A stretch of 64,000 nt of DNA, taken from sequence record MK327947.1; one strand, written 5' to 3'. The notes under the pieces are model-generated. The model saw nothing but the letters and a program-made list of their open reading frames with translations, was not told where the DNA came from and searched no databases. Position numbers and translations under genes: made by a program. This DNA comes from Escherichia phage vB_EcoM_G5211. Shown here one piece after another: positions 50,112 through 62,451 of this stretch; positions within the stretch are counted from its first letter, which is position 1, and each line of letters opens with the position of its first letter.

Positions 50112-50595
50112 ATTTTGCTAAATCATTGCAATATTTTAGTGCCTTAGTTTGAAATTCTGCGCTGTTAAGTTCTTCATAACGGTCATAATCACCGTTTAAT
50201 GCTGCTTTTCTTGCTTCTTGCTCTATCTGCATGTCAGACATGATAATACAGCGATCCCGCGCTTTCATCTTCTCAAGTTGTATAGACTCTTCTTTCTGCT
50301 TGCGCAATTCTTCTTGACGCTTCTTTTCTTCTTGTGCTTTCTCTTCCCGCGCTTCTTTGATTGCATCCTTGAACATCTGCGTTTGTGGTGCTAAACCAAC
50401 TTTAACTCGATCTACGTCTCGACGTTCCATTTTAGAAATAAAGCATGATTCGATCTGATCATCACTTGCATATGCTGCTTTACATTCACGAAGCAAGAAA
50501 ACCGGATCTGATTTAGCATTCATCATAGCTTCCATGTTGGCACAACCAGTAAGCATGAATGCAGCCGCAAGACCAATCAGTTTAATCATTTTCAT
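50110..50595 (-). CDS. Putative lipoprotein (signal peptide with LTGC lipobox)
   Basis: N-terminus MKMIKLIGLAAAFMLTGC; charged coiled-coil-like middle; 161 aa. Confidence 0.6.
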   Translation of the reverse strand: MKMIKLIGLAAAFMLTGCANMEAMMNAKSDPVFLLRECKAAYASDDQIESCFISKMERRDVDRVKVGLAPQTQMFKDAIKEAREEKAQEEKKRQEELRKQKEESIQLEKMKARDRCIIMSDMQIEQEARKAALNGDYDRYEELNSAEFQTKALKYCNDLAK

Positions 50596-51416
50596 TTAGT
50601 CACCTCACCGAAAATTGTAAATTGTCTACGATTCTCATCGCCGAAAGATTCTACTACGTCGTTTACCTTGACGCAAGTCCCGCGCGGTAAAATTACTTCA
50701 CATTCGCAAGGGTTCCATGCAATGGACCCAACAACAAAACCTTTATGATCTTTTACATCAATCACCCATGATACATTACAAGAATGTTGCATCTTTCCGG
50801 TCATGGATTCATATCGATTCTCACAATAAAGGCTAGTGCTGTTTGATAGCCAGCCTCCAAAGATGATCGGTGTCATGCTGGTCGATACAAAGTTTTTAAA
50901 GGTAAACTCCTTATCTTCAATGATACGCTCTATTGTCTGAATGTCAAGATGTTGACCGCGATAAAGAGTACCGTTTAACTTTTCGGTTTTATCCATGACG
51001 CAATCCATCAAATCGACAATCTCTGATATCTCATCGGTCATGTCTTCTTCCCCTAAGAGAGCACCATTTACCCATTCGTATTGCTCAGACACATAATCAC
51101 AGATTGCATTATATTCTGCTGGGGTTATGTTGTTATGTTTGTAATGTTTGAATACATTATCTCCAAAGTCTTCGGAGTGTACTTCATACATCACATTAAT
51201 GATTTTCTTGACAAATCCATAATCTTGTGTCTCACGCTCAAGGAAGCGGATAACCTTCACATAATCATCAAAGTTAATCTGATCGCTGATCATCTCAGTG
51301 ATCATGTAACCATTAATACCCTCAATGTCATATGTTTCGATGTAATTATCCATACGTTCCATCATTGATTCGCGTGATTCTTCTGAAAGACGAAAATCCT
51401 GTAATTTCTTGAACAT
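50592..51416 (-). CDS. Short Alt-like ADP-ribosyltransferase (R-S-E class)
   Basis: LYRGQ (Arg), FVSTSMTP (STS), ECEVILPRG (ExE-like) parallel the Alt catalytic region; 274 aa. Confidence 0.7.
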   Translation of the reverse strand: MFKKLQDFRLSEESRESMMERMDNYIETYDIEGINGYMITEMISDQINFDDYVKVIRFLERETQDYGFVKKIINVMYEVHSEDFGDNVFKHYKHNNITPAEYNAICDYVSEQYEWVNGALLGEEDMTDEISEIVDLMDCVMDKTEKLNGTLYRGQHLDIQTIERIIEDKEFTFKNFVSTSMTPIIFGGWLSNSTSLYCENRYESMTGKMQHSCNVSWVIDVKDHKGFVVGSIAWNPCECEVILPRGTCVKVNDVVESFGDENRRQFTIFGEVTK

Positions 51417-51494: not shown

Positions 51495-53546
51495 TTACAT
51501 TTTAAATTTATCTGGCATTGCGTCTACAGATACCAGATCAGCGATAAGCTGACGTAGAGTTGCCTTATCTGCTTTCTTACGTTCGGTTTTAGCTTCGCTA
51601 ATGAAGCTGGAGAAAGACAGGTCAGAAGCAGGTTTAATAACACCTTCACGGATGAATGCATCACCGTCCGCGATCATCTCGCCAGATTCTTGTAATGCTG
51701 CCAGTTCATTTTTGTTCATAATATGTGCCTCAATGTAATAAGTTTCTTGTGAATCCGTCGATGCCGTAGCACGAGTTACCGTATCAAAGGATAACACAAC
51801 ACCGCGAGGAAGTAAAATCTCGCATTCTTTGTAAGCAAATGCTTTGTTACCTACTGGCAATACAGGGATGTTTTCCGCGCCAGCAATGGAGAAAGCAACA
51901 TTAGCGCCACCTTCACCGCGAGAGCCAGCCATAGAATCAACACCAGCAACGGCACTAGCCACGTTTGCATTCCAGCCGCCAAAAATGTTAGGTGCAAGGG
52001 AAGTGCTCACATAGTTTTTAAAGTAAAACGCTTTTTGCTTACGTGCAGTTTCCCACATTTGCGACCGGAAGTCCATACCACGATACAGAATAGTACCCGG
52101 ATCAAGTTTAACGCCATAGTTGGAGAAGGCATTATCCAGTGCATCGCACATCTTGACCAATTCTTCTGGATCTGCGATGCCTTCAAACTCTTCCAGCTTA
52201 CGGTCGGTTAGGAAGTTGTTCATATTGATGTATGCTGCATCGGCATATTCGCTCAACACAAAACCTTCCGCGCCCGGCAGATCAAGATCAATATCTGCCA
52301 TCATTTCACCCATGTTGCTAGCAATTGCTTCAAACATACCGGAAGCAACATTACGTAGGGCATCGGTTTTAATCTGGGTGATGTGACTACGCAGCATTTC
52401 AGCTTTTACATCTGCTGGCATAGACTGGTCTACTCGATCCATTGCCAGGGCGGTGATCTTGTTTTCGAATACTTCCTCGCTCATGATTTCTTTTAAGCGT
52501 TTGATTGATGCTGCGATAACTTCCGCAGACAATGGATCATATTGATCCTGAACTTTTACCAGTTCGCTTACTGCGTATTTTGCATCGGCTTCGCTTTCAA
52601 AAATAGTACGCATGAAACCATAGCGAGTGATAATATCACTTGTCCAGTCATTCAGAGAACGGGCGGTTGAACGTTCTAAGGCTTGACGATCAATCAGAGT
52701 ATTAAACTGTTTCTTAGGTTCGGCTTCGGTGATATCTTCTTCCGGTTTAAGATTAATTTTTTCTGGATGATTCACATAGTCGCTGTTATAGGTCGCTTGA
52801 GTTTTCAGCATTTCTTCTTTAGTCAAACGAGATTTAGCCGCTACGCGTTGTTCTGCTTCCGCGTTTCGTTCTTCTTCTGACACAAGACTAGCCGCATATG
52901 CCTCATCTTTAGTCAGAGATTCACCAGTAGCCTTAGATACCCAGCGATCACCTAAATCACTTTCTACTTTAGTGAACAAGGATTCATCAAGTTTAATCCC
53001 TTTAATCTTATCAATCGCCATCCCGCGACGCTTGACAACAACTAAAGCGATCTTTTTGCTGGTCATTACTTCCTGCTGGAATACTTCAAACTTCGGTGTA
53101 CGACGCACCAAACGCTCTATAACGCGCTTAACCAGTTCGGTCTTACCTTTCATGCGGGATACGTTAAAACGGAACATAACAGCGTCTAATTGCGCTTTAC
53201 GGGCTGTTTCCATAACCACATCAAAAGCACTTGACATAACTGCAATCGGGTTATCGCCTAGACCATTTTTAAGCTGTACAATACGACCGCTTTTGTTCAT
53301 TTCGCACAGTACAACATGTGCGGTCTTGTCACCCATACGAATGATTTTAGGTGTTTTGTTGGTGAAGTTACAAAGACGGACAATCACATCTTTATCGCGT
53401 GTCTGTACTGCAAAAAGCTGTTTAGGATTCTGCTTAGGCTTTAAGCACTGTACCGGAGCAATACTGCCAAAGTTTTCTTCCTCTTCCGTCAACAGCCATT
53501 TCTCGAAAGATTCAATCATTAGATCGTCGATTTCTAAGTTAAACAT
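51495..53546 (-). CDS. alt: Alt ADP-ribosyltransferase
   Basis: 683 aa (T4 Alt 682 aa); ILYRGMDFRS, YVSTSLAP, ECEILLPRG motifs; position next to gene 54. Confidence 0.85.
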   Translation of the reverse strand: MFNLEIDDLMIESFEKWLLTEEEENFGSIAPVQCLKPKQNPKQLFAVQTRDKDVIVRLCNFTNKTPKIIRMGDKTAHVVLCEMNKSGRIVQLKNGLGDNPIAVMSSAFDVVMETARKAQLDAVMFRFNVSRMKGKTELVKRVIERLVRRTPKFEVFQQEVMTSKKIALVVVKRRGMAIDKIKGIKLDESLFTKVESDLGDRWVSKATGESLTKDEAYAASLVSEEERNAEAEQRVAAKSRLTKEEMLKTQATYNSDYVNHPEKINLKPEEDITEAEPKKQFNTLIDRQALERSTARSLNDWTSDIITRYGFMRTIFESEADAKYAVSELVKVQDQYDPLSAEVIAASIKRLKEIMSEEVFENKITALAMDRVDQSMPADVKAEMLRSHITQIKTDALRNVASGMFEAIASNMGEMMADIDLDLPGAEGFVLSEYADAAYINMNNFLTDRKLEEFEGIADPEELVKMCDALDNAFSNYGVKLDPGTILYRGMDFRSQMWETARKQKAFYFKNYVSTSLAPNIFGGWNANVASAVAGVDSMAGSRGEGGANVAFSIAGAENIPVLPVGNKAFAYKECEILLPRGVVLSFDTVTRATASTDSQETYYIEAHIMNKNELAALQESGEMIADGDAFIREGVIKPASDLSFSSFISEAKTERKKADKATLRQLIADLVSVDAMPDKFKM

Positions 53547-54145: not shown

Positions 54146-54664
54146 TTAGTTATTTTTTAATTGCTCATCTTGCAATAGGGCAATCACATGCTGGCGATGT
54201 TCTTCCGATTGAGGAACACCGAAAAAGTTTGTTTTGTAGAAATACTCTAATCGGTCTTCTCGTGTGCTCTCTTCCATCATGATCGCGGGTAGTCCGAGAT
54301 TTCGGAAACGTCGCTTTTCTGCTGGCGTAAAATCACTGTAATACAACATAGAATCATCATTACCAGCAATGCTAAACTCATCATTCATGAAGGAGAATAT
54401 TGCGTTTAAACGCTGTTTACCGTCCACGATTTCGATCTCATAGCGAGAGCCATCATCAATCTTAGCCATTGCGATAGCACCAACCGGAAAATCATTAATC
54501 AGGTTTTCGATAAACATACGTTTGTTTTCGGTGTCCCATACCAAAGGACGCTGATAATCTGGGTTCATGTTGATATAGCCATCTTCTAACCATGCATCAT
54601 AAACAGAGATGACAAAGTTTTTAGTATTGGTATAGTAACGGCGTTTAGGCGTTAAACGGTTCAT
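54146..54664 (-). CDS. DUF262 / ParB-like nuclease-domain protein (DGQQR-type motif)
   Basis: PDYQRPLVWD and IVDGKQRLNAI motifs; ATG at 54664 immediately follows upstream stop (alternative start 54700); about 172 aa. Confidence 0.6.
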   Translation of the reverse strand: MNRLTPKRRYYTNTKNFVISVYDAWLEDGYINMNPDYQRPLVWDTENKRMFIENLINDFPVGAIAMAKIDDGSRYEIEIVDGKQRLNAIFSFMNDEFSIAGNDDSMLYYSDFTPAEKRRFRNLGLPAIMMEESTREDRLEYFYKTNFFGVPQSEEHRQHVIALLQDEQLKNN

Positions 54665-54665
54665 G

Positions 54666-54995
54666 TTATAGTCTCCTGAATGGATCATCACGTAAATCAA
54701 TATCTTTTAAGAACTCATCCCATGAATGGCGGATATTGTTCTTAATTCTCCAGATAAGCGCAGGGATTGAACGCTCTCCCATCTGGAAGTAAGGATCATA
54801 TGATCCGTATGCCCAATATGCTACTACAATTCCACAGTCAGCGCAATAGTATTCTATTTCACTTGCTGGCGACCAAAGTCCATCAATATGATCAGTGATC
54901 TTGCTTTCGATGTTATGACTATGACAATCAGGGCAACGGATGCAATGACCTTGTTTATCGTAATTTGACGTTAGAGAATACTTAAACAATCTCAT
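54666..54995 (-). CDS. Cys-rich zinc-ribbon protein (109 aa)
   Basis: CIRCPDC and CADCG Cys pairs; start overlaps upstream stop (TAATG). Confidence 0.5.
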   Translation of the reverse strand: MRLFKYSLTSNYDKQGHCIRCPDCHSHNIESKITDHIDGLWSPASEIEYYCADCGIVVAYWAYGSYDPYFQMGERSIPALIWRIKNNIRHSWDEFLKDIDLRDDPFRRL

Positions 54996-58004: not shown

Positions 58005-58283
58005 TTATAAAATAATTTTTTGATATTTTTCTATGATGTTCGTGTAATTCACATCAACCGCTAGCACCGTTGCTTCGAATCCACCGTTTAGCCAATGGCT
58101 ATGATCGTGATCGTGAAAGAAACCTAGACCAGTACGAAGACCTTCTTTATATTCGGCGCGTACATTTAGATCATCATCGATAAACAGATAAAACCATGAA
58201 TTTTTACTAGGATTGATGATACAACCTTTCAGATTCGGGAGAATATCACGACTAAGAATAAACTTATCACCTACTTTGAACAT
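58005..58283 (-). CDS. Small protein of the H-x-H-W paralog family (92 aa)
   Basis: SWFYLFIDDDLNVRAEY...HDHDHSHW...TVLAVDV. Confidence 0.55.
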   Translation of the reverse strand: MFKVGDKFILSRDILPNLKGCIINPSKNSWFYLFIDDDLNVRAEYKEGLRTGLGFFHDHDHSHWLNGGFEATVLAVDVNYTNIIEKYQKIIL

Positions 58284-58297
58284 AATATTTTCCTCAC

Positions 58298-58606
58298 TTA
58301 TAAAGTTTGACCGTTGTTTTTCGCATAATGCTTAATGCGTGCTTGATCTGCTTCCGCTGGTGATAGATTCCATGCAACCACTACAACTTCTGACGCATCG
58401 TCATCCGTTTCTGATACCCAATGGTTGTGATTCATACAGTTATTTGCTATCGAGTGAGCAAATGATTTCATCACTGGAGACGTATAATCATAGTAACGGA
58501 TTTTCAGATTTTCATCAACATACAAGTAGATCGTATAAGGTTTATATTCAGTAACCAGTAACAGACAGTTACGCAATTCTGGGAAAATCTTTTTAGTTAA
58601 TTTCAT
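58298..58606 (-). CDS. Small protein of the H-x-H-W paralog family (102 aa from ATG 58606)
   Basis: YTIYLYVDENLKIRYYDY...NHNHW...VVVVAWNL; ATG 58606 with RBS gagga, 1 nt after upstream stop. Confidence 0.5.
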   Translation of the reverse strand: MKLTKKIFPELRNCLLLVTEYKPYTIYLYVDENLKIRYYDYTSPVMKSFAHSIANNCMNHNHWVSETDDDASEVVVVAWNLSPAEADQARIKHYAKNNGQTL

Positions 58607-58607
58607 T

Positions 58608-58817
58608 TTATAATCCTCGGTCGCGGCTATAGTACACGGTACGCCATACAATTTCATGTTTCGTGTCGCTCCAGCACACGATCTCATTTACTCTTAAATC
58701 TTTGTTATCAACAAAAGATGAACATTGTGACGCTTCTTTCATCATTTTATCTGCTGTTTTCTCATCAAATACAGCACAGATTTCTTTATACACTCGATAA
58801 TCTTTAAACTTGCTCAT
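58608..58817 (-). CDS. Small protein, MSKFKDY family copy B (69 aa)
   Basis: MSKFKDYRVYKEICAVFDEKTADKMMKEASQC...; paralog of adjacent copy. Confidence 0.45.
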   Translation of the reverse strand: MSKFKDYRVYKEICAVFDEKTADKMMKEASQCSSFVDNKDLRVNEIVCWSDTKHEIVWRTVYYSRDRGL

Positions 58818-58819
58818 AA

Positions 58820-59035
58820 TTAACACCAATCAAGAGTTTTTGAGAAAACCTCTATCCATTGTTGAGTATATGCGGTTTCTTTCCATGATACAATACCAGT
58901 AGAATAATGGTTTTTGTTTCCAGAAAATGACGGGCATTTTGATGCATCTTCCATCATCTTTTCGGCGAACTCTGGTTCGTATACTCGCAAGATCTGTTGA
59001 TATGCTTTATAATCTTTAAATTTGCTCATAATCAT
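58820..59035 (-). CDS. Small protein, MSKFKDY family copy A (71 aa)
   Basis: MIMSKFKDYKAYQQILRVYEPEFAEKMMEDASKC...; tandem to copy B. Confidence 0.45.
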   Translation of the reverse strand: MIMSKFKDYKAYQQILRVYEPEFAEKMMEDASKCPSFSGNKNHYSTGIVSWKETAYTQQWIEVFSKTLDWC

Positions 59036-59294
59036 TCACTACCTTATCAGCTTCTTTTGTTGTTTTTACATCAACTGCGATAACCCGTAAAGGTTCGTCA
59101 TGGTTCCACCAATGATCGTGAATATCGGCTTGTGATTTATCACCAAAGGAATCACGAATATCATTTTTACTTTTATAGCTAATGTGACCGTCATAGTCAA
59201 CATAAAGGTAATTATCGAAAATCGGCGTTTTTAAGATCATGCCGAAAAATCTTTCTTTGTGTGTCTTATCCAGCGTTGCAGTAATTCGCATCAT
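59016..59294 (-). CDS. Small protein of the H-x-H-W paralog family (92 aa)
   Basis: NYLYVDYDGHISYKSKND...HDHWW...RVIAVDV. Confidence 0.55.
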   Translation of the reverse strand: MMRITATLDKTHKERFFGMILKTPIFDNYLYVDYDGHISYKSKNDIRDSFGDKSQADIHDHWWNHDEPLRVIAVDVKTTKEADKVVNDYEQI

Positions 59295-59795: not shown

Positions 59796-60272
59796 TTATT
59801 TTTCTTGATGCTCGCGCTCGTACTTTTCGAAATAAAATTCTACTGGCTGGTCATGAATTGACAGCAAGCCAAAGCGTTTAGCCGCTCGCAATCCCATATT
59901 GCGCTGAATGTACTTCTGGAAGTTCTCGCGTATACACTTACGCCAGTATTCTAAGCCCATACAGCTTTTATAAAGATTGCATTGTACACACGCCGGATTC
60001 ATGTTATCAAGTATATCATGTTCCGGTTTATGCATTCCTACAACCTTATACTTCCACGACCCATCATCATTACGGGCAATTCGTCCATTTTCATCATAGA
60101 CTACCTTTGAGCGTCGCAATACTGGTTTGATATGGTCTGCGTGCCAGCGATCCCCTAGTTCCTCGCCACAATAGGCACAACGCCCACCGTATTTCATTTT
60201 CAGGATCTGGCGTTGCTCTTTCTTTGACAATTTTTTAGGTTTAGGGGCTTTCGCCCCTTCATTATCACACAT
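59796..60272 (-). CDS. HNH endonuclease (possible homing endonuclease)
   Basis: CAYCGE...HADHIKPV...N...CVQCN: Cys pair-HNH-Cys pair architecture; 158 aa; overlaps ligase stop. Confidence 0.7.
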   Translation of the reverse strand: MCDNEGAKAPKPKKLSKKEQRQILKMKYGGRCAYCGEELGDRWHADHIKPVLRRSKVVYDENGRIARNDDGSWKYKVVGMHKPEHDILDNMNPACVQCNLYKSCMGLEYWRKCIRENFQKYIQRNMGLRAAKRFGLLSIHDQPVEFYFEKYEREHQEK

Positions 60273-61767
60273 CGAATACCTCTTTTACTGTATTTGCCGT
60301 GGTCTTGTCGTAGCGAATACGTTTGATGATTGGGAGAAATAAAGAGAACTCCGGTTCATCTTCTTTACGTGATTTGCTGCGGATATACCCGTTGCATGTC
60401 ATCTCAATGACTTTTCCAATCAGGTTATGACGGTCAGCCCATAACATTTCTCGGTCGAGTTCATTTCGACGATCGAACGGAATTACACGTTCGATACCAT
60501 CATCACCTTTTTCGGTTGTGGTGTCGGTTAATCCCGATCCGGTGTTAGTCATCATTCGTCCGCACGCACTACGGACAGTAAAACCGCCTACCTTATTGGG
60601 GTCTTTACTATGCGGATATACATCAACAATTTCCGCGTCGAAGTCAATAACTTCTTTAAATTTAACCTGATCTTTACTGCGACGATCTTCAAATACACCA
60701 TGTAAATTTTTAAGGATAATACCTTCTAAGCCCATGTTTACATAGCGATGATATACTTCGCGAGCTTCATCGATATTGTTAACTACAGTGTTTTCGATTA
60801 TCTGAACACGAGGATCGTTAAGTTCTTCAACAATCTGTTTTAGTTCTTCGAATCGATCTTTATATTGCTTCGTTGCTTTCTCGTTTCCGTAATACACATC
60901 ACGGTCGATAACATCCCAGACAGTGTAAACAATACATTGGGCTTCTTCTTTTGGAATAGTTCCTTTCAGTGATTTGTTGAGGATACCATTTCCGGTCTGA
61001 CGATCTGCAACAACGGATTCTTTCACTGCTTCCGCTACTGGCGTTAATGGCATTTCATCTTCTTCAAATATCCATGACAGAGTACCATCATAAACGCTCT
61101 CAACGAAGTTCTGCGCTGGTGTTTGCGAAAGGGTAGGCATATATACCAATTCGCCATCTAGAACAATTCCACGGCCTCGTAGACGCTCTAAAACCACAAA
61201 CAAATCATCAAGCCCTTGATAGGTATTACCTGAACGGGTATAGATTGCTAATGTTTCCCCGTCAATATCAGCCATCCCACGAGCGCCATCGCTTTTAAGT
61301 TGTGCATACGCCGGATATTTGATATTGGCAATGGTCTTATCAGAACATGACGATGCAAGGTGGCACGGCTGCTGAGGAATCAGTTTCTTCCATACCTTGT
61401 TTGCGGTGGTAGCGGAACAACCGCATTCTAGGTCTCGATTCAGGACCATCATTGCAACTTTAGCATCGTCTTCCGACAAGCAAGTCAGAGTATCGGTAAC
61501 TAGCTGTAATGCTGCATTACCAGTTATTTGACGCGTGGCAAGTTTATTTTTAAAGACCTGTAATGCGCCAGATAAAGACAATACAGATGAATAACGCGAC
61601 GGTTTATCGTATTTCTTTACGCCAAACGTAACCTGTTTGCAATATGCCAGATAAAAGCATTCTTTCAGCGTTTCATTGCTTGCAGATTCTTTCAGGATCT
61701 TTTCTTTCAGCGATGTTTTGTCTGTTGCTGCAAGCTGATTAATGATATTAAGAATTGACATTTTCAC
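60265..61767 (-). CDS. 30: ATP-dependent DNA ligase
   Basis: 500 aa; adenylation motif AQLKSDGARG; LATRQITGNAA and DLECG segments parallel T4 ligase. Confidence 0.9.
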   Translation of the reverse strand: MKMSILNIINQLAATDKTSLKEKILKESASNETLKECFYLAYCKQVTFGVKKYDKPSRYSSVLSLSGALQVFKNKLATRQITGNAALQLVTDTLTCLSEDDAKVAMMVLNRDLECGCSATTANKVWKKLIPQQPCHLASSCSDKTIANIKYPAYAQLKSDGARGMADIDGETLAIYTRSGNTYQGLDDLFVVLERLRGRGIVLDGELVYMPTLSQTPAQNFVESVYDGTLSWIFEEDEMPLTPVAEAVKESVVADRQTGNGILNKSLKGTIPKEEAQCIVYTVWDVIDRDVYYGNEKATKQYKDRFEELKQIVEELNDPRVQIIENTVVNNIDEAREVYHRYVNMGLEGIILKNLHGVFEDRRSKDQVKFKEVIDFDAEIVDVYPHSKDPNKVGGFTVRSACGRMMTNTGSGLTDTTTEKGDDGIERVIPFDRRNELDREMLWADRHNLIGKVIEMTCNGYIRSKSRKEDEPEFSLFLPIIKRIRYDKTTANTVKEVFDV

Positions 61768-62227
61768 CTCGTTTTGTTAAACGTTCACGAATATCATTGA
61801 GGATACTACAAAATTCCGATTCAGTCAATATAGTCTTTAACGGATCAGTTCCACCTATGCTATGACGTAATTTCTTATTTCCGGTAGCGAGTAATGCTTT
61901 ACAAAATTCTGGGTTATTCCGTGCCATCGTAACAAATGCCAGATGTACCAGTCTGTAATAATGCTCACTCATTCGATGAATAGGGCGACCCTGAAAATAT
62001 AACATGTGATTCTCAATCTTTTCAGTTCTTCCGGTTCTTTTTGCTTTGCCACCGTGCATCAAAAAGATTTCTCTTTGTCTCTGAGGGTTCTTAAATCTTA
62101 GCCCCTGTAAAAATCCTTCTGTGCTGTTAATATCGCAACCAAATAGACGGAATGGTCTTTTATTGAAATTGCTCAATTCACCCGATGGATAAGGTCCACC
62201 CGCATAGATATCAATTTCAGAAGTCAT
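61748..62227 (-). CDS. NADAR (YbiA-like) domain protein
   Basis: GGPYPSGELSNF...STEGFLQ...F and LLATGNKKL resemble YbiA/NADAR core; 159 aa. Confidence 0.5.
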   Translation of the reverse strand: MTSEIDIYAGGPYPSGELSNFNKRPFRLFGCDINSTEGFLQGLRFKNPQRQREIFLMHGGKAKRTGRTEKIENHMLYFQGRPIHRMSEHYYRLVHLAFVTMARNNPEFCKALLATGNKKLRHSIGGTDPLKTILTESEFCSILNDIRERLTKRGENVNS

Positions 62228-62381
62228 TGAAACTAATCTCGCTAATCAGAGAGAACGGATCATAATCGTCATTAGGAATATCGATAGTAATCGAATGAGG
62301 ATTTACCCATACACCAAACTGGCCTTCTTCGGTGAATACTTCGGTATGGATTTCGTGGATGTTTACATTCATAGTTTTCAT
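62217..62381 (-). CDS. Small hypothetical protein (54 aa from ATG 62381)
   Basis: ATG with RBS aagga; longer ORF starts with TTG. Confidence 0.35.
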   Translation of the reverse strand: MKTMNVNIHEIHTEVFTEEGQFGVWVNPHSITIDIPNDDYDPFSLISEISFNDF

Positions 62382-62419: not shown

Positions 62420-62451
62420 TAGCCAAAATATAGGCGGGATTATTTCCCGCC
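62420..62451 (-). terminator. Rho-independent terminator after gene 31 (minus strand)
   Basis: Hairpin ggcggga-ttatt-tcccgcc followed (on minus strand) by T-rich tract. Confidence 0.55.

Follow-up and report, generated by a model that had tools for sequence, protein, structure and literature searches.

A small protein with the motifs of an ADP-ribose-removing enzyme, encoded beside the DNA ligase gene of a lytic T4-like phage that also carries ADP-ribosyltransferases, raises the question of which ADP-ribose modification it removes. The stretch of DNA analysed here, referred to below as the window, comprises 64,000 nucleotides of Escherichia phage vB_EcoM_G5211 (MK327947.1). An initial annotation described a 159-amino-acid reading frame in it as a NADAR-like protein next to DNA ligase and near two ADP-ribosyltransferases, and offered two explanations for its presence: that it counters host toxins of the DarT type, or that it forms, together with the phage's own Alt enzymes, a pair of writer and eraser activities.

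The reading frame occupies minus-strand positions 61748..62227, where it runs from an ATG to a stop codon over 159 amino acids, and all three of the YbiA/NADAR-like motifs quoted for it are found there, with GGPYPSGELSNF at residues 10-21, STEGFLQ at residues 35-41 and LLATGNKKL at residues 112-120. It stands far above chance, since the encoded protein matches the Pfam family PF08010 (Phage_30_3) with E=1.2e-38 and PHROG 652 with E=2.5e-45, and has homologues in 1509 phage records (tblastn). The protein shares 100% of its residues with gp30.3 of phage RB49 (AJ550428.1; tblastn), and the surrounding 2.5 kb has 98% nucleotide identity to RB49 and to 58 other RB49-like Krischvirus phages. In sequence terms, the window frame is thus RB49 gene 30.3, a long-catalogued member of the gp30.3 family and a homologue of T4 adfN, although GenBank records of RB49-like phages still carry it as a “hypothetical protein”. 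Across 59 RB49-like phage records the protein has at least 95% amino acid identity, and no truncation is seen among them.

The assignment of this protein to the NADAR superfamily, which was defined by De Souza and Aravind (as cited in PMC11543638), is not delivered by simple profile searches. The PF08010 match covers profile positions 2-138 of 138 with 132.5 bits (cut-off 36), but the Pfam NADAR model itself, PF08719, gives the protein only 15.5 bits (E=0.021), short of its threshold of 35.1; other members of the gp30.3 family score 21-27 bits with PF08719. The NCBIfam model “NADAR family anti-phage protein” reaches only E=0.023, and PADLOC returns no match for 30.3. The assignment is nevertheless settled, because it is carried by profile-profile and fold comparison. 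When 86 gp30.3-family sequences were compared with 112 YbiA-family sequences using hhalign, the two families aligned with a probability of 98.2% (E=2.9e-14, 130 columns), and a search of the PDB with a profile HMM of the gp30.3 family yields YbiA and nothing else (E=0.12). An AlphaFold2 model built on a 12-sequence alignment has a mean pLDDT of 94.2 and a pTM of 0.89, and the predicted fold is of the YbiA type, with small beta-sheets flanking core helices; YbiA is its best structural match, and it matches the same three NADARs in the PDB that were reported for AdfN-T4 (PMC11825919). NADAR membership is therefore solid despite the sub-threshold Pfam score, and the initial description of the protein as NADAR-like is borne out by the comparison with the YbiA family and by the fold.

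A single-sequence search of the PDB also aligned residues 45-151 with the C-terminal part of the D-alanine carrier protein ligase DltA (7vhv_D, E=3.8e-4), and the NCBIfam DltA model gave E=0.24. This similarity is rejected as chance, because it is lost, leaving only YbiA, when the single sequence is replaced by the gp30.3-family profile. The family extends far beyond the T4-like phages, as indicated by the 973 clusters (at 50% identity) that match it at E<=1e-3. Among metagenomic proteins, the gp30.3-type NADAR domain is found fused to a calcineurin-like phosphoesterase (P0058) and to BspA-type leucine-rich repeats (P0061), and it occurs in tandem copies in P0019, P0069, P0117 and P0135, where the C-terminal copy is without the catalytic glutamate.

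The conservation of individual residues was counted in 167 domain rows, which represent clusters at 50% identity, and separately in 80 viral-contig loci; the roles given to the catalytic glutamate and the phosphate-binding lysine are those established in PMC11825919 and PMC11543638. E37 (codon GAA, 62117..62119, minus strand) aligns with the glutamate of the YbiA motif SEHYFQAQK and corresponds to the distal-ribose-binding catalytic glutamate of the known enzymes (E36 of T4 AdfN, E88 of the C7 NADAR, E43 of PnNADAR); glutamate occupies this position in 161 of the 167 rows and in 80/80 viral loci. H122 (codon CAT, 61862..61864, minus strand), which is equivalent to T4 H123, follows directly on the predicted last beta-strand of the model (residues 119-121), and histidine is found there in 160 of the 167 rows and 79 of the 80 loci. 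A histidine at this site marks the phage NADARs, while the YbiA family has glutamate and the DarT-linked proteins have aspartate (PMC11125620, PMC11543638). E37, Q41, R85, H122, T135 and E138 are all conserved in the protein, which has the majority residue of the 167 rows at nearly all of the strongly conserved positions (L18, S19, N20, F26, E37, Q41, Q51, A62, K63 and R85, and also L112, H122, G125, L134, T135 and E138). The C-terminal alpha-helix (residues 136-155; 61763..61822, minus strand), placed by the AlphaFold2 model and by the alignment to T4 gp30.3, is intact and modelled with high confidence, and the alignment reaches the end of the T4 protein; the RB69 allele, by comparison, is truncated so that this helix is removed, with a reduction in activity (PMC11825919).

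The one exception lies seven residues after the glutamate, where the conserved phosphate-binding lysine (T4 K43, C7 K95, PnNADAR K50) is not present in the window protein, and arginine, R44 (codon AGA, 62096..62098, minus strand), stands in its place. Of these three residues, then, E37 and H122 are present and the lysine is replaced, by way of a conservative change. The position is occupied by lysine in 151 and by arginine in 10 of the 167 family rows, so that arginine accounts for about 6% of the family, and by lysine in 77 and arginine in 3 of the 80 viral loci. The sequences with arginine belong to several unrelated groups, keep the glutamate and the histidine, and have nearest neighbours with lysine; the substitution thus has more than one origin. 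The same variant occurs in a T4-like contig of 159.8 kb (IMGVR_UViG_651703001_000001, L053), whose protein is 40% identical to that of the window and which keeps the T4 gene arrangement 31 - 30.3 - 30.2 - 30.

The second element of the initial annotation, the location of the gene, holds in part. The protein is indeed encoded next to DNA ligase: gene 30, which encodes an ATP-dependent ligase (60265..61761, minus strand; PF01068 E=5.1e-22, 41% identity to T4 gp30, RB49 annotation), has 30.3 immediately upstream and shares with it the 14 nt in which 30.3 ends and gene 30 begins, so that the ATG of the ligase and its Shine-Dalgarno sequence, GAGGTG, fall inside the last codons of 30.3. On the other side, the 54-amino-acid ORF215c (RB49ORF215c; 62217..62381, minus strand), which lies upstream of 30.3 and has no known domain, reaches its stop 11 nt inside 30.3. 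These start-to-stop overlaps suggest that ORF215c, 30.3 and the ligase gene are translationally coupled. This block is separated from gene 31 by a hairpin that resembles a terminator, GGCGGGAAATAATCCCGCC with a run of T after it (62433..62451, minus strand). No promoter is claimed for 30.3 itself, because a consensus scan gave 14 sites against 12.2 expected from shuffled sequence.

The two ADP-ribosyltransferases are also real, since both carry PF03496. One is alt, which encodes the packaged enzyme of 683 amino acids (51495..53546, minus strand; PF03496 E=2.2e-9, T4 Alt tblastn E=2.4e-58, RB49 annotation), and the other is an Alt-like gene encoding 274 amino acids (RB49ORF183c; 50592..51416, minus strand; PF03496 E=4.3e-16, match to the C-terminal part of T4 Alt E=2.6e-20). 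“Near” is, however, a generous description of genes that lie 8.2-11 kb away, with alt at a distance of 8.2 kb and about 28 small reading frames between the transferases and the ligase. Several of the features in this intervening stretch deserve mention in their own right. The product of RB49ORF187c (184 amino acids; 54146..54700, minus strand), placed among the small early frames between alt and the ligase, contains DUF262 (PF03235 E=6.4e-20), the domain found at the N-terminus of restriction enzymes of the GmrSD type, which is unusual for a lytic T4-like phage. A duplicated two-gene cassette is suspected at 58005..59294 (minus strand), where the frames at 58608..58829 and 58820..59035 have 44% mutual identity (E=6e-20) and those at 58005..58283 and 59016..59294 have 31% (E=4e-7) and share the motif H-x-HW...V(L/I)AVDV; a further frame at 58298..58687 looks related to them by eye. 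Adjoining the ligase, an HNH endonuclease gene (RB49ORF212c; 59796..60272, minus strand; PF01844 E=5e-6) overlaps the ligase 3' end; it is probably a homing-type insertion, and T4 has no counterpart at that position.

The closeness of 30.3 to the ligase and Alt genes is best described as inherited T4-type synteny, because T4 has the same backbone: the order in RB49 is 54, ORF182c, ORF183c (Alt-like), alt, about 28 small frames, ORF212c, 30, 30.3, ORF215c, 31, 31.1 and cd, and that in T4 is 54, alt, 30, 30.1, 30.2, 30.3 and, after further genes, 31 and cd. Gene 30.3 has been kept, whereas the window contains no homologue of T4 30.1, 30.2 or 30.4-30.9, and 30.1 and 30.2 are for this reason rejected as co-factors of 30.3. 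Among 80 diverse loci from viruses that encode a gp30.3-family protein, taken with 3 kb flanks, a ligase homologue was found within 3 kb at 4 loci and an Alt homologue at 1. Adjacency therefore carries no functional signal across the family, and on these counts a functional linkage of 30.3 to ligase or to Alt is rejected.

What the members of this family do has been addressed by a series of studies. Iyer et al. 2022 (PMC9503650) described NADARs in T4-like phages that are expressed together with ADP-ribosyltransferases, and Schuller et al. 2023 (PMC11543638) reported that NADARs hydrolyse guanine-ADP-ribose and serve as antitoxins of DarT1. A 2024 paper in Toxins (PMC11125620) gave the phage NADARs the name “gp30.3 proteins” and found that, in vitro, T4 gp30.3 hydrolyses guanine-ADP-ribose (G-ADPr) and leaves T-ADPr untouched. 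Combining genetics with a dot-blot assay in vitro, Johannesman et al. 2025 (PMC11825919) traced the ability of T-even phages to resist DarTG1 to gene 30.3, which they renamed adfN (“anti-DarT factor NADAR”). They found that T4 AdfN removes ADP-ribose from DNA, and observed impairment by E36A, K43A and a C-terminal truncation. A transposon screen has since identified adfN as conditionally essential on DarTG1 hosts (bioRxiv 10.1101/2025.11.20.689424). The anti-DarT role of the gp30.3 family, which makes these NADARs phage “orphan antitoxins” that reverse the ADP-ribosylation of DNA by DarT1, was thus already known from work published from 2023 to 2025, and the countermeasure foreseen in the initial annotation has been demonstrated experimentally for the T4 orthologue, gp30.3/AdfN (PMC11825919, PMC11125620, bioRxiv 10.1101/2025.11.20.689424). 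The phages assayed in PMC11825919 are Tevenvirinae only. No paper linking RB49 or Krischvirus to DarTG was found in the collection of papers searched, and RB49 is not named in the tables of PMC11543638, where phiM12, which has a 40%-identical homologue, appears under “Phage NADARs”.

It is likely, with a probability of about 0.8, that the window gene is the Krischvirus orthologue of T4 adfN and encodes a stand-alone N-glycosidase of the NADAR fold that undoes guanine ADP-ribosylation by DarT1. Within an early or replication gene block, the gene would probably be translated together with the 54-amino-acid frame before it and the ligase gene after it. In an infected host, DarT1 toxin would attach ADP-ribose to guanines of the replicating phage DNA; the enzyme would bind this ADP-ribose with E37 and H122 flanking the distal ribose and R44 holding the pyrophosphate, and would then cut the bond between ribose and guanine, leaving unmodified DNA on which replication could go on. 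From the identity with RB49 gp30.3, the family, the NADAR fold, the conservation of the glutamate, the histidine and the C-terminal helix, and the gene order, we infer that the RB49-type protein, with its arginine for the conserved lysine, would hydrolyse guanine-ADP-ribose in DNA and protect from DarTG1 as T4 AdfN does. Caution is called for, in that the identity to T4 AdfN is only 38%, and AdfN-T4 is fully effective only in T-even infections (PMC11825919), so that the function need not carry over from one genus to another.

The other explanation offered at the outset, in which 30.3 would erase the ADP-ribosylation of host or phage targets by the phage's own Alt and Alt-like enzymes, draws on the fact that both transferases are encoded on the minus strand in one block with it, 8-11 kb off. 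That arrangement is the inherited T4 synteny, however, and an Alt homologue lies within 3 kb at only 1 of the 80 diverse loci. Alt modifies arginine in proteins, and all of the assayed NADARs, including T4 gp30.3, act on guanine-ADP-ribose in DNA. In addition, the phenotype of T4 adfN has been seen only on DarTG1 hosts (PMC11825919, bioRxiv 10.1101/2025.11.20.689424). The pairing of writer and eraser thus finds no support, and it is very improbable. An unlikely alternative substrate, in place of DNA adducts, would be soluble molecules derived from ADP-ribose, such as NAD-derived immune signals or toxins, or intermediates of the riboflavin pathway, as in the case of E. coli YbiA; YbiA, the best structural match of the model, is annotated as an N-glycosidase. 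This prediction is older than the experiments, which show that the T4 orthologue strips ADP-ribose from DNA in vitro and that the need for it is specific to DarTG1, and the glutamate that defines the YbiA family is a histidine in the phage family. The enzyme may still have a second substrate beside DNA adducts.

The sole feature that leaves real doubt about extending the DarT1 antitoxin function to the RB49-type allele is R44. An arginine at a site where about 90% of the family has lysine could make the protein a weak anti-DarT1 factor, or one tuned to another writer of guanine-ADP-ribose or to another substrate context, and the precedent for such an effect is the C7 NADAR, whose K95R form retains G-ADPr hydrolysis in vitro but loses the rescue of DarT1 toxicity (PMC11543638). 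Against this, the recurrence of arginine in unrelated lineages that keep the glutamate and the histidine, and in L053, suggests that it is tolerated, every other conserved residue is intact, and the protein is preserved at 95% identity or above, untruncated, in the RB49-like records; it is therefore improbable that the allele is attenuated or retargeted. In T4 AdfN, K43A is only partly defective (PMC11825919). Because the same change from lysine to arginine ends the in vivo function of a DarG1 NADAR and spares catalysis, R44 could conceivably mark a distinct subtype of AdfN which is directed against a defence other than DarT1 that ADP-ribosylates guanine or another base, or which needs a different phage co-factor. 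This suggestion is speculative and rather doubtful, but if true it could help to explain the dependence of AdfN-T4 on phage context.

With the orthologue of T4 adfN as the preferred reading, the practical value of the result lies in the transfer of annotation, because the RB49-like records in GenBank do not name the gene's product. The case also illustrates that a reader given nothing but the letters of a sequence can correctly spot an anti-defence enzyme.

A comparison with the known NADAR systems places the window protein among the phage enzymes. It differs from E. coli YbiA and the Phytophthora NADAR (PF08719) in that it falls below the Pfam NADAR threshold, in the replacement of the YbiA-defining glutamate by histidine, and in an extra beta-hairpin at residues 75-84 which is without a counterpart in the hhalign alignment. 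It differs from the DarG1 antitoxin NADARs (the BC4488 family, those of E. coli C7 and Geobacter lovleyi, PDB 8bat) in having histidine in the region of the catalytic aspartate of the last strand (C7 D171), in lacking the N-terminal extension (159 amino acids, as against 219 for 8bat), and in its failure to match PADLOC and its E=0.023 with the NCBIfam NADAR anti-phage model. Nor is there a DarT gene beside it: a DarT1 toxin operon is absent from its surroundings in this lytic phage genome, where the neighbours are DNA ligase and the domain-less frame of 54 amino acids, and the window gene is therefore an orphan. The closest parallel is T4 AdfN. The window protein departs from it in having R44 at the position of K43, in abutting the ligase gene directly, with T4 30.1 and 30.2 absent, and in belonging to a phage of another genus, Krischvirus. 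It resembles AdfN in its end-to-end alignment (38% identity over 151 amino acids, BLASTP E=2e-30), in its membership of PF08010 and its length class (159 amino acids, as against 152 in T4), in its genomic position between the ligase gene, 30, and gene 31, and in having the same glutamate (T4 E36, window E37), the same phage-type histidine (T4 H123, window H122) and an intact C-terminal helix.
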